Source: a virus
DNA: 64,000 nucleotides
Strand: one strand, 5' to 3'
Virus record (IMG/VR): IMGVR_UViG_3300037524_002067
Span: 90,344 to 154,343 of that record
Shown: positions 18,747 to 60,616 of the stretch, piece after piece
How positions within the stretch are numbered: the first letter of the stretch is position 1
How the letters are laid out: every line of letters starts with the position of its first letter
Made by a program: the position numbers and the translations under genes
The notes under the pieces: generated by a model
What the model saw: the letters and a program-made list of their open reading frames with translations, nothing else
What the model was told of the DNA's origin: nothing
Database searches by the model: none

Positions 18747-19771
18747 TTTTCTTGGTTTATTTTATTACAATACTCTTTTTCTTTTGACATAATCATATAA
18801 AAAGGAGCTAAATAAAGCTCAATATTTTCCATGCCAACAAAACCCATTAAACCTTCTTTTGCCATCAATGTAATGGCGCTAGATATTTCTCTTGTGTTGT
18901 CTAGTGTTGCTTCTTTTATGTCCCTTACTAGTTGTTTTGCCTCTTGGTTTAAAAATGGCTTTTTAAGATTCATTAATTTAGCATTTCTGTACAAAATATA
19001 TTCAGCGCCTATAATTTTATCATAAATCTTTGATTTTGATTTCTTTTTGTCTTTTTTTGCTTCATAACATTCAGCAACCAACATTTTGTAGGTGTATTTT
19101 TCAGTTCTTAAACGCGGGAAGTGCTCAAACAATTTTTCTCTTGTTACGCCGCCTACTTTAGTTATTTCATCTGCTGAATCGCCGTCAAAACACTTCAATA
19201 ACAATTCATTTTCAACAATACATTTATAAGTTTCTTCGTACAACTTCTTATCTAAAACAAAAAAATGATCTGGGTTTATTATTTTTACCTTATCAGAAAT
19301 TAATTGTCTAAAATCTCCATCTCTGCTATAAATAAAAATTTCATCGTTTGTATTTTGCAAAATATATTCTGCTATCAAATCATCAGCCTCAATTAAATCC
19401 ACCTCCATTTGACGCACGAATAATTCGTCCAATATTCTGCTCAAAACAAATTTCTGTTTTAGTATTTCAAACCTCTCTTTTTCTTTGGGGTCGTTTGTTA
19501 TACCTTCGTTTTTAAGCATTTTTATTTCCTGATCGTAATTTTTTCTTTTAGATTTATATTGTGGATATATTTCCCACCTTAATCTACCAGCATTAAAACC
19601 ATCCCAGGCAACAACAACCCTGTCTGGTAGAAATTTGTTTATAACATCTTTGAGAGAATTAATAAAACCTATAATTCCTCCACAAAGCTCTCCATTGGAA
19701 TTTCTTACACCTTTTTGATAGTAAAAATTCCTTTTTAAATTCCAACTCCCATCCACTAATATCACTTTCAT
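18743..19771 (-). CDS. 5'-3' exonuclease / flap endonuclease (PolA 5' nuclease, T4 RNase H-like)
   Basis: ILVDG, VVAWDG, YKSKR, EADDLIA, SRDGDFRQL, GDSADEI..VGGV; start at ATG 19771. Confidence 0.92.
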   Translation of the reverse strand: MKVILVDGSWNLKRNFYYQKGVRNSNGELCGGIIGFINSLKDVINKFLPDRVVVAWDGFNAGRLRWEIYPQYKSKRKNYDQEIKMLKNEGITNDPKEKERFEILKQKFVLSRILDELFVRQMEVDLIEADDLIAEYILQNTNDEIFIYSRDGDFRQLISDKVKIINPDHFFVLDKKLYEETYKCIVENELLLKCFDGDSADEITKVGGVTREKLFEHFPRLRTEKYTYKMLVAECYEAKKDKKKSKSKIYDKIIGAEYILYRNAKLMNLKKPFLNQEAKQLVRDIKEATLDNTREISSAITLMAKEGLMGFVGMENIELYLAPFYMIMSKEKEYCNKINQEK

Positions 19772-57709: not shown

Positions 57710-57746
57710 AAACCAATACCTTTTTTACATAAATAGGTATTAATTA

Positions 57747-58280
57747 TTATTGTCCAGCCAATATTAAAGCTTGATTATCACCTGCAATATCATTAGTGTT
57801 TACAACGACATTACCCATTGTGTTTGCAGACATTATGGAAGATGTTTTTGACGTAGTCCAAACTTCTTGAGCAATTTGAGCTGGTGTTCCCAAACTAAGT
57901 GTATCAATTAAGTTTGATGTTTGTAAACGTATGGCAACATTATAACTACCAACTGTTGGAATTACTGCAACAGATCCATCCCTGGTGTATATATTTCCTA
58001 AAATAGTCAAAGAGTGATTGCCTTCATATGGCCTTATTTTCCATCCATTTTCCAAGAAAAAAGTTGTACCAAGTGATAATGTGTCACTAATTGGGTCACC
58101 ACCGATTGCGCTTATTGCTTGTAAATATTTGGTATTGTCACCTGTATCTCCGCTAAAGTCTCCTTGGTTTGACAACCATTCCTTCCAATCGCTGTAAATG
58201 TTTTTTTTAACGTCAATAGTTGTAACGCCGCTGTTAATAATGATAAGTTTATTTGGTCCGTCGAATGTAACTAAAGCCAT
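57747..58280 (-). CDS. putative virion structural protein
   Basis: VTFDG.NKLI, IYSDWKEW, GGDP, FFLENGW; resembles the N-terminus of 59123-60616. Confidence 0.7.
   Translation of the reverse strand: MALVTFDGPNKLIIINSGVTTIDVKKNIYSDWKEWLSNQGDFSGDTGDNTKYLQAISAIGGDPISDTLSLGTTFFLENGWKIRPYEGNHSLTILGNIYTRDGSVAVIPTVGSYNVAIRLQTSNLIDTLSLGTPAQIAQEVWTTSKTSSIMSANTMGNVVVNTNDIAGDNQALILAGQ
58212..58280 (-). repeat. diverged direct repeat, copy 2 (5' 23 codons of the structural gene)
   Basis: 52/69 nt and 19/23 aa identical to 58997-59065 by manual alignment. Confidence 0.9.
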
Positions 58281-58282
58281 AA

Positions 58283-59065
58283 TTATATTTTTTTAATTGT
58301 CCAACCACCTTGTGTGCTTTTCTGAGTTCCTCTTAAAATATTTTTAAAAAGACACACTTTTATATTGTTTTCTCTATAAAATTTAGACATGTTTTTTATT
58401 AAAAATATTTCACCTGAAGGTGATGATATTTTATATAACACATTTGCTCTTCTTTCGTTTCCAAAGTTGTTTAACCTTACAATGTCTCCAATTTTTTTAG
58501 ATCTTTTTTTACCTTTTCCTGGGTTTATATATCCAGGGCTATTAGTAAATAATAGCATTTTAATTCTTTGTTCCTCTCTTTTTTTTGCAGTCCATCTTTT
58601 TTTAGATGATTCTCTCATCTTTTTTTTAGAATCCTCAGATACAATTTTTAACTTAAGATATACTTGTCTATCACGTCTAGCTTGTTCAAAATCTAAATCA
58701 TTTTCTATAACTCGATTTTTACCAGTTTTCATCATGGTAAAAGCAAAGCACAAAAATCTTGTAAAAATGTGGTTTTTTCCAAAGTTCTTTTTAAAAGAGA
58801 GCCACAATAATTTGTGTGCACAATAATGTTCTTTGGCTGATAAGTTTATTAATAAATTATTATTGCCAAAAACACATTTTGGAAAAATGTGGTGTTTTTC
58901 ATAATAATCTACAAGCGTGTTGTCTTTATTTTTATTTTTTATTAAATCAAAATACTCAATTAATTCGTCGTTTTTAAAGCTAAAAGTTGTAAAAAAATCA
59001 ATGGAGGTTACACCACTGTTGATGATAATAAGTTTATTTGGTCCATTGAATGAGACTTTTGCCAT
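58283..59065 (-). mobile_element. free-standing HNH homing endonuclease (NUMOD-type DNA-binding tail) fused to a duplicated N-terminus of the downstream gene
   Basis: YYEKHHIFPKC..G.N..LINLSAKEHY.AH.LL HNH core; SEDSKKKMRES and NPGKGKKRS NUMOD3-like; C-terminal SPSGE..GGW. Confidence 0.85.
58997..59065 (-). repeat. diverged direct repeat, copy 1 (fused to HNH)
   Basis: MAKVSFNGPNKLIIINSGVTSID versus MALVTFDGPNKLIIINSGVTTID. Confidence 0.9.
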
Positions 59066-59122
59066 TGTAAATTCATTTTAATAAAATATAAAGATTTCGA
59101 AATTAAAATCAATGATTTTTTA

Positions 59123-60616
59123 TTAAGTGTTAGAGTAGTTACGCTCAAGAGCAGATACCAACGAGAACGAGTTTGCATTCGATCTAATAATGGTACCAGT
59201 TGTTGACACGTATTGACCAGTCGATAAACCTAAAGCTACAATTGTAACGTCAGCTGTTGTACCAGATGTTCTACCACCCTGAGTATTACCATCATAATCG
59301 AAGTCAAAGTTTACAAATGTAACACCACTACAAGTTCCAGTAATAGGATTTCCAGAGTTGTCGTTAACAATTATAGCATTTGATGTTCCGAAGTTTCCTC
59401 CTGGGTTTGTTGTAAAATACATCTTGAAAATTGAAAAGTTGTCATTGGTCAAGTTTTCATTGAATGAAATTGAACCAGCTGCAACGAATGGGAATGTATG
59501 TAAAACACCAAACACATCATAAAACTCAATCGCGTTTGTATCGGTTGAATTAAAGTTGTCAATGTATACACCATCCTCTGTAACTAAAGTATCACCCACG
59601 AAACGCAACAAAGCATCAGCTGTTTTACCACTAACATTTCCAAAAGGAGGTCCAGCATATCCTGAGTTAATGTTACCAGGTTTTCTTAATTGTCTTTGAG
59701 TAAATTCATAAATCTCCTCTTTGGAGCCAGTATTACCACTTATAATTTTATTAAATGCGTAATATGATCCACCAATATTTCGTTCCCCAGTATAAGCTGA
59801 CCAAGCTGTTGACTGTAAAGCTCTAGAACCCCCACCAGATGTATGGGCGGATATAGAGATATACCATCTATTATCTACAGAGTCTTTTACAACATGATGA
59901 AAACCATAAACCTGAGATGTTGCCCATGTAGTAAAACCACTACCCTTAAGATAGTTGATTGACATACCAGTATAAGGCGAAAGAGTATCAACATCATTAT
60001 CTGTAGCTTCAATTTTTAAGTCAGTAGAGTTACCCAACGGAAACGCATAAACCTGGTACGTAACAGTACTTTGACCAATATCTGCCAAAGCAGATTGATC
60101 ATACAAGTTTTGATATTCACGTACAAATATTTTAAAGAAATTTCTATAGTCTGTGATTGTAGATCCAGAGTTATAAATCTGAACAGCTTGGTTAACCGCC
60201 CCTGTTAAAACCACGTTTGTAGAACCAGAATTTGCATTTTGTTGATAATAAACCTGGCTACCATCAACAATGCTACCCAAAGTGATTACACCCATATATT
60301 CTTCTATAGAGTTGTTAGAGGAGTCTTTATATGCCCAACCACCATCTCTAACCAATTCTCTTGTGGTTCCACCAGAGAAATTCCATCCGTTAATAAAGTC
60401 AAACTTCTGCTCCGTAATCGCAATTAATGGAAATGGAAACTTAATTAAGTTAGAGTCGTTTTTCCATTCTTCTTTTGTAAAAGAATATATGGCTTGCATA
60501 GTTACACCATCATTGCTTAAGTTTCCAAGTTTAGACAACAATATTCTTTTTGTCGCCGTATCAAACGTTATTTCTACACCTTGATTTAATGAATCTGGAT
60601 CTGTTATTTTTGCCAT
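59123..60616 (-). CDS. putative virion structural protein
   Basis: 497 aa beta-rich, T/S/G/N-rich; late motif at 60648-60655. Confidence 0.7.
   Translation of the reverse strand: MAKITDPDSLNQGVEITFDTATKRILLSKLGNLSNDGVTMQAIYSFTKEEWKNDSNLIKFPFPLIAITEQKFDFINGWNFSGGTTRELVRDGGWAYKDSSNNSIEEYMGVITLGSIVDGSQVYYQQNANSGSTNVVLTGAVNQAVQIYNSGSTITDYRNFFKIFVREYQNLYDQSALADIGQSTVTYQVYAFPLGNSTDLKIEATDNDVDTLSPYTGMSINYLKGSGFTTWATSQVYGFHHVVKDSVDNRWYISISAHTSGGGSRALQSTAWSAYTGERNIGGSYYAFNKIISGNTGSKEEIYEFTQRQLRKPGNINSGYAGPPFGNVSGKTADALLRFVGDTLVTEDGVYIDNFNSTDTNAIEFYDVFGVLHTFPFVAAGSISFNENLTNDNFSIFKMYFTTNPGGNFGTSNAIIVNDNSGNPITGTCSGVTFVNFDFDYDGNTQGGRTSGTTADVTIVALGLSTGQYVSTTGTIIRSNANSFSLVSALERNYSNT

Follow-up and report, generated by a model that had tools for sequence, protein, structure and literature searches.

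How can a homing endonuclease gene settle inside the coding sequence of a conserved gene and yet leave that gene whole? In the usual view, homing endonucleases persist in genes through a self-splicing intron, an intein, or a split of the gene into two working halves. The locus studied here lies in a 64,000-nucleotide (nt) stretch of the genome of a large wetland phage (IMG/VR virus record IMGVR_UViG_3300037524_002067, positions 90,344 to 154,343), hereafter the window, in which an open reading frame (ORF) for an HNH nuclease of 260 amino acids (aa; 58283..59065, minus strand, stop TAA) begins with a diverged copy of the first 23 codons of the gene that follows it, a full gene of 177 aa (57747..58280, minus strand; hereafter the target gene). 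Such a layout would represent a fourth route, in a phage: to seize the start and the leader of a gene and bring along a spare start. We consider it probable that an HNH homing-endonuclease gene was inserted after codon 23 of a conserved virion-module gene, that the nuclease and the spare start are mobile by break repair, and that the second copy of the start is protective or imported.

Two gene starts, one of them on a nuclease

The HNH ORF and the target gene share 19 of 23 residues and 52 of 69 bases over their first 23 codons, and the likeness stops at codon 24-25. We call copy 1 the segment that opens the HNH ORF, in frame with the nuclease (58997..59065; MAKVSFNGPNKLIIINSGVTSID), and copy 2 the working first 23 codons of the target gene (58212..58280; MALVTFDGPNKLIIINSGVTTID), which are continuous with the rest of the gene (codons 24-177, 57747..58211); these and all other features of the locus are on the minus strand. 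Seventeen bases differ between the copies, 12 of them synonymous and 5 nonsynonymous (K3L, counted twice, S5T, N7D, and S21T). The HNH ORF ends in TAA, and the ATG of the 177-aa gene comes 2 nt later. When the N-termini of the 307 ORFs of the 154-kilobase (kb) genome were compared, the two copies (19/25) formed the only pair above 15/25, and hence the duplicated starts are not a product of chance. The runner-up, at 15/25, consists of adjacent paralogues of 116-117 aa outside the window (G000:C1:18712-19062 and 19148-19501, plus strand), a tandem duplicate unrelated to the HNH insertion. An earlier note on this DNA had described the copied 23-codon start, with its many synonymous changes, and the restart of the intact gene 2 nt past the nuclease stop; recomputation confirmed this description.

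Beyond copy 1, the ORF continues with a linker of nine codons (FFTTFSFKN, 58970..58996), without counterpart in the target gene or in HNH relatives by alignment and BLASTP, and with the nuclease body (residues 33-260 plus TAA, 58283..58969), which holds the HNH motif (58805-58900) and a C-terminal module common to relatives (about 58286-58459). In a PHROGs search the ORF matches phrog_655 'homing endonuclease' (E-value 4.7e-25, residues 37-206). Among named phage records, MobE of the Aeromonas phage Aeh1 gives the best full-length match (27.6% identity, 85% of the query), and residues E56, K57, H58, H59, E79, H80, and H84 are invariant in an alignment of HNH relatives. A Pfam search returned no model at E 0.1 for this protein; its residues ~203-260, where a C-terminal DNA-binding region would be expected, can be aligned with a module seen repeatedly among relatives, and NUMOD3 (PF07460) is present in several of these. 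Judging from these matches, the protein is a Mob-type HNH homing endonuclease with its catalytic motif intact. Sequence searches, including an exhaustive HMMER search that gave 2799 relatives (the nearest 33-37% identical), revealed neither another copy of this nuclease nor a close relative. Its body is compositionally foreign, with a GC content of 26% against 36% in both neighbouring genes.

Residues 1-32 are an add-on made of the 23 captured codons and the nine-codon linker, since relatives begin about six residues before the point aligned with residue 37. In both alignment and BLASTP, relatives start aligning at about residue 33-37 of the HNH ORF. In most of the best 149 of the 2799 relatives, residue 37-38 of the query corresponds to residue 6-7, and the EKHH motif, where it can be located in these 149, lies mostly at position 20-39, while here it lies at 56. 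The frame holds no ATG, GTG, or TTG from codon 2 to codon 86, codon 87 being already past the HNH motif, which leaves the captured ATG as the sole start for a complete nuclease; four codons upstream of this ATG, the frame is closed by a TAA. The claim that the nuclease uses the resident start is borne out by this frame and by the point at which the alignment to relatives begins.

The same genome carries a second Mob-type HNH gene outside the window (L039:1588-2328, plus strand, which is G000:C1:69087-69827; 246 aa), 35% identical to the window nuclease over the HNH domain. This gene has its own MNYKKHY start and lies on the strand opposite to its neighbours, in an ordinary free-standing arrangement; it shares with a relative (P0123) the free-standing layout, the MNY start, and the intergenic spacers. 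Another candidate for a captured start, the long N-terminal extension of P0186, was rejected, being merely an overlap with the upstream gene. Exactly at the junction between copy 1 and the nuclease (58989-59018, minus strand) there is also a terminator-like element, in which seven T follow a weak 6-bp stem with a loop of 8 nt (-6.7 kcal/mol, z -1.25). It may lower expression of the nuclease, as has been suggested for T4 mobE, or be there by chance.

Empty alleles and the origin of the two copies

Relatives of the locus without a nuclease do exist. In L001, a viral contig whose target protein is 86% identical, and in L011, a 186-kb metagenome contig (84%), a homologue of a 497-aa gene is followed by a conserved leader and then directly by the target gene. 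In the window, the 497-aa ORF (59123-60616, minus strand) is likewise the upstream neighbour of a 57-nt leader (59066..59122) that separates it from the copy-1 ATG. This leader aligns with those of L001 and L011, with a long AT-rich block identical in all three; this alignment identifies it as the leader of the resident gene, which the HNH ORF now uses. The earlier note had looked to HNH-free relatives for a gene start matching copy 1, and in both contigs the gene start and leader proved collinear with copy 1 and its upstream DNA. The site is without a nuclease in all of the ~55 family loci other than this phage. No nuclease-free relative above 86% identity was found: protein database matches fall from 99% (nuclease-bearing) to 84%, and viral and metagenome contigs gave none either.

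Copy 1 resembles these empty alleles more than copy 2 does. It shares 62/69 and 59/69 bases with L001 and L011, respectively, against 54/69 and 56/69 for copy 2. Where the copies differ (17 sites), L001 has the base of copy 1 in 12 cases and that of copy 2 in 4, and the split for L011 is 9 versus 6. Synonymous divergence (dS) from L001 and L011 is 0.32 and 0.55 for copy 1, and 1.43 and 0.87 for copy 2; for the gene body, dS to the relatives is 1.0-1.1. The changes specific to copy 2 cluster at codons 2-4 and are densest at codons 17-23 (6 of the 21 bases before the junction), and over the ten codons past the junction 28 of 30 bases are identical to L011. Between the two empty alleles, L001 and L011, dS is 0.32 over the first 23 codons and 0.90 over the rest of the gene, and the family N-terminus (V-T-F-D-G-P-N-K-L-I-I) is among the best conserved parts of the protein. 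Conserved sequence of this kind tends to be the target of homing endonucleases.

Between copy 1 and copy 2, synonymous sites are saturated and nonsynonymous divergence (dN) is about 0.10. Because synonymous divergence is saturated with few amino-acid changes, the copies would have diverged as working gene starts in different genomes, and the lateral arrival of one of them seems more likely than a recent duplication in place.

Several points weigh against a native copy 1, or against the insertion scenario as a whole. The relatives are only ~80% identical in DNA and the identity of the flanks per 69 nt runs from 44 to 64, so the 54-56 of copy 2 is no outlier. L011 is as close to copy 1 as to copy 2 over codons 4-23 (50/60 for either); the splits of 12:4 and 9:6, which involve ~16 synonymous sites, are borderline at best; and the excess of copy-2-specific changes is statistically non-significant. 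All sequenced copies of this phage bear the nuclease, with no matched empty allele known, and since the nuclease has no close relative (best 33-37%), no second insertion of the same element documents movement. Other comparisons are neutral: codon usage does not discriminate the native copy (in log relative codon frequency, copy 1 sums to -16.2 and copy 2 to -12.4), identity to ~35 more distant family members is uninformative over codons 4-23, and the 'ALVTF' and TTA GTT that P0004/L060 has in common with copy 2 are too short to count. The earlier expectation that empty alleles match copy 1 better held for bases and for dS; the earlier claim that copy 2 is foreign agrees with this direction, but the values of copy 2 lie within the local background. 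These data fit a native copy 1 that was displaced, and a copy 2 that either came in with the nuclease or was selected for its differences, although the statistics are weak. We are fairly, but by no means fully, confident that copy 1, and not copy 2, is the native one.

Two further observations concern the site itself. In the empty allele of L001, codons 13-27 (L001:4036-4081, plus strand) fold into a stable hairpin (-13.1 kcal/mol, z -3.3) formed by an inverted repeat that spans the later insertion point, and this hairpin is not kept in L011 or in either copy of the window. In three more distant relatives (L061:76-273, L062:445-597, and the P0005 contig), the slot between the genes of the 497-aa type and the target genes holds an unrelated ORF of 50-65 aa that ends 1-4 nt before the target ATG, and this intergenic slot seems to be a recurrent insertion spot. 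The small ORFs of L061 and L062 were considered as remnants of a duplicate start and discarded, as they are unrelated genes.

A proposed route into the gene and its rivals

In the route that we propose, the native start would be copy 1, displaced by the arrival of the nuclease together with copy 2. One transcript would encode both proteins, the nuclease being made by ordinary initiation at the old start of copy 1 and the structural protein by initiation or re-initiation at the new start of copy 2. The nuclease would nick or cut uninterrupted alleles near the junction, and repair of the break would copy the nuclease together with copy 2, homology being provided by the leader and copy 1 on the left and by the gene body on the right. 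The synonymous differences of copy 2, densest in the seven codons before the junction, would then prevent re-cutting of the rebuilt gene. Its divergence may also disfavour two other outcomes: pairing of the broken recipient end with copy 2, by which the break would be repaired without copying of the nuclease, and loss of the nuclease through recombination between the repeats.

That the insert is instead an intron, an intein, or an assembly artefact has one point in its favour, its location inside a coding sequence, and we give this explanation practically no credence. The whole insert is coding except for 2 nt. It closes with TAA and the gene starts anew in a different frame, which makes protein splicing impossible; intein features are missing too (residue 24 is Phe, and there is no C-terminal His-Asn). 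No Rfam intron family matched the insert, even at E up to 10, and the earlier conclusion that there is no room for an intron and no intein holds. The downstream gene, moreover, is complete alone and aligns end to end with its homologues. As for an artefact, which the earlier note had listed among the findings that would refute it, it is ruled out by nine contigs from separate assemblies that have the two-gene layout (including a 190-kb NCBI contig) and by contigs of an independent DNA run that span both junctions with zero mismatch. The nuclease ORF also immediately precedes a variant of the 177-aa gene that is 99% identical. No joint that skips the nuclease, be it from an empty allele or a spliced RNA, was present among the contigs of four sequencing runs, in which the RNA contigs do not include the HNH-to-gene junction. 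The RNA-library contigs cover part of the HNH ORF and the start of copy 1 with the leader; they may stem from DNA carry-over and are too thin to bear on splicing.

The polarity of the event could also be the reverse: copy 2 and the gene body would be native, and the nuclease, with a foreign copy 1 attached to it beforehand, would have come from a donor like L001 and landed just upstream of the resident ATG. We regard this as unlikely, although it has real arguments. The dS of copy 2 to the relatives (0.87-1.43) equals that of the gene body, as in one continuous lineage, direct repeats on both sides of any insertion leave its limits uncertain by the length of one repeat, and L011 is equally close to both copies over codons 4-23. 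Yet copy 1 is continuous with the leader conserved in empty alleles, a native copy 2 should share the synonymous conservation of this segment (dS of 0.32 between L001 and L011, against 0.90 in the body) and does not, and in the fungal precedent discussed below the displaced copy is the native one (PMC3630166). It is more improbable still that the layout is an accident, in which a one-off illegitimate insertion duplicated 69 nt in place and drift followed, the nuclease being immobile and the recoding non-protective. Such an accident would agree with a nuclease that has no second copy or close relative, that is carried by every sampled genome of this phage and may be fixed, and whose mobility is only inferred. 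However, a drifting and unconstrained N-terminal tag should not spare its amino acids, and here synonymous saturation comes with a dN of only 0.10; neutral decay for long enough to saturate synonymous sites should have broken the ORF, and instead the ORF spans 260 codons with its catalytic residues and C-terminal module undamaged. Finally, the 23 residues, with three predicted beta-strands, could have been kept to dock the nuclease at the partner of the target protein or at a virion site. The break point does coincide with a boundary of secondary structure in the model of the target protein (strands at residues 4-7, 12-15, and 21-23, and a helix from 24), and copy 1 retains F6 and G8, which vary little or not at all within the family. 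But a docking role has no evidence behind it, copy 1 has N7 where relatives usually have D, and the need for a start codon and a leader is a simpler account, so we find docking highly improbable. Insertion after codon 23 with a spare start remains the reading that we prefer.

Parallels in other systems and the nature of the target gene

The nearest parallel comes from fungal mitochondria, where mobile endonuclease ORFs (mORFs) carry a foreign C-terminus for the gene that they invade and leave the native one stranded downstream, as in atp6 of Allomyces macrogynus and in atp6, atp9, cox2, and nad3 of Glomus sp. (PMC3630166). There, as here, an endonuclease gene without an intron sits in a coding sequence between two diverged copies of a gene end and in phase with the gene fragment; one copy keeps the gene whole, and the displaced one is nearer to the relatives (PMC3630166). 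The earlier note had likened the locus to a mirror image of this 3'-end replacement, and the likeness is sound, with two diverged copies of a terminus that is here the 5' one. The differences are instructive. At the 5' end the nuclease takes over the promoter-proximal start and the leader, while mORFs lie at the 3' end as a C-terminal extension; the fungal nucleases are of the GIY-YIG or LAGLIDADG type and the present one is a Mob-type HNH protein; and the host is a phage. The contrast between native and inserted copies is also weaker here (90/86% versus 78/81%) than in Glomus (98% versus 71%, for example).

Among phages, the free-standing Mob and Seg endonucleases of T4-type genomes, associated with 'intronless homing', can lie in coding regions, as do mobE in nrdA of Aeh1 and mobA in the topoisomerase gene 39/60 of T4 (PMC2988022). 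These share with our case the nuclease family, a promoter-less cassette that relies on resident expression signals, the invasion of a conserved phage gene, and a sporadic distribution (PMC2988022). In the T4-type Mob cases, however, the insertion splits the gene into two polypeptides that reassemble, whereas here a diverged duplicate of the 5' end rebuilds the gene whole and the displaced start forms a translational fusion with the nuclease; a review of these elements from 2010 does not mention duplications (PMC2988022). The 'fractured genes' are described as having a free-standing endonuclease gene between the split-intein halves of a host gene, and resemble our locus in placing a homing-type endonuclease gene in a coding region without an intron (PMC2677866). 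They are described as needing protein splicing in trans (PMC2677866), while our locus has no intein motifs and its gene is unsplit, being restored by the duplicate.

We found no description of 5'-end capture in a phage in the literature searched, whose coverage is incomplete, so that absence is unproven. If the recoded patch does confer resistance, it would explain how intron-less nucleases can target conserved structural genes, and it would provide a signature, a short diverged N-terminal duplicate fused to a nuclease, with which to find such elements and correct phage annotation. It would also be a natural precedent for designs that pair a nuclease with a recoded rescue. In synthetic 'Cleave and Rescue' gene drives, a nuclease against a needed gene travels with a recoded version of the target that it cannot cut. 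Should our interpretation hold, the phage nuclease too would be accompanied by a recoded part of its target, with the differences that the element is natural, that only the first 23 codons are recoded, and that it would spread by homing repair and not by the killing of non-carriers. A broader proposal goes beyond what we would call probable, and we put it forward tentatively: the cassette might be a natural 'cut and rescue' unit in which the nuclease recognises the synonymously conserved codons ~17-30 and the 69-nt recoded patch is the immunity determinant, and fusion to the displaced start of a gene might be a general, widespread, and undescribed route by which Mob-type nucleases enter coding sequences in phages without introns, a mirror image of what fungal mitochondria have at the 3' end.

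The gene invaded encodes a conserved phage protein with 448 homologues in a protein database search, among them Syn5 gp55 (32.5% identity) and proteins of S-TIP28, Maribacter phage Panino, and virus Rctr197k. A tentative assignment placed Syn5 gp55 in a knob density of the capsid (PMC4102127), but a later AlphaFold refit did not support it (PMC9207676). Domain searches with the 177-aa protein gave only a sub-threshold match to DUF7265 in Pfam and none in PHROGs. Its AlphaFold model has a predicted local distance difference test (pLDDT) score of 78, rising to 88-94 over the short N-terminal strands and the helix that begins exactly at residue 24, the break point; with this model, Foldseek on the PDB gave no match at E <= 0.001, and the best hit of VIA wide (Z 3.2) covered the C-terminal helices only. 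All genes around it are on the minus strand, in the order 497-aa gene, leader, 260-aa HNH ORF, 2 nt, 177-aa gene, 102-aa gene, and large tail-fibre-like ORFs with Laminin_G_3. Because its neighbours are tail-fibre-like, this place suggests that the 177-aa product is a virion protein.

The rebuilt gene would also draw on the nuclease ORF for its translation. The last codons of the HNH ORF (ending in TIKKI and TAA, 58281..58300 with the 2-nt spacer, minus strand) supply the A-rich leader typical of the genes of this phage, with A at 9 of the 12 bases from -14 to -3 before the copy-2 ATG. Only 7 of 95 long ORFs of the genome, whose GC content is 32%, have a Shine-Dalgarno sequence, and A-rich leaders at -14 to -3 occur at its genes (for instance at 57710-57735 of the window). 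Such A-rich leaders without Shine-Dalgarno sequences are typical of Bacteroidota hosts. At the protein level, many members of the family (L002, L003, L015, L018, L044, L045, and others) show an N-terminal extension of 20-30 residues, rich in W, F, and Y (e.g. ...NYGGWQFWEAY...), that precedes VTFDGPNKLI and may represent an extra domain or a start called too far upstream.

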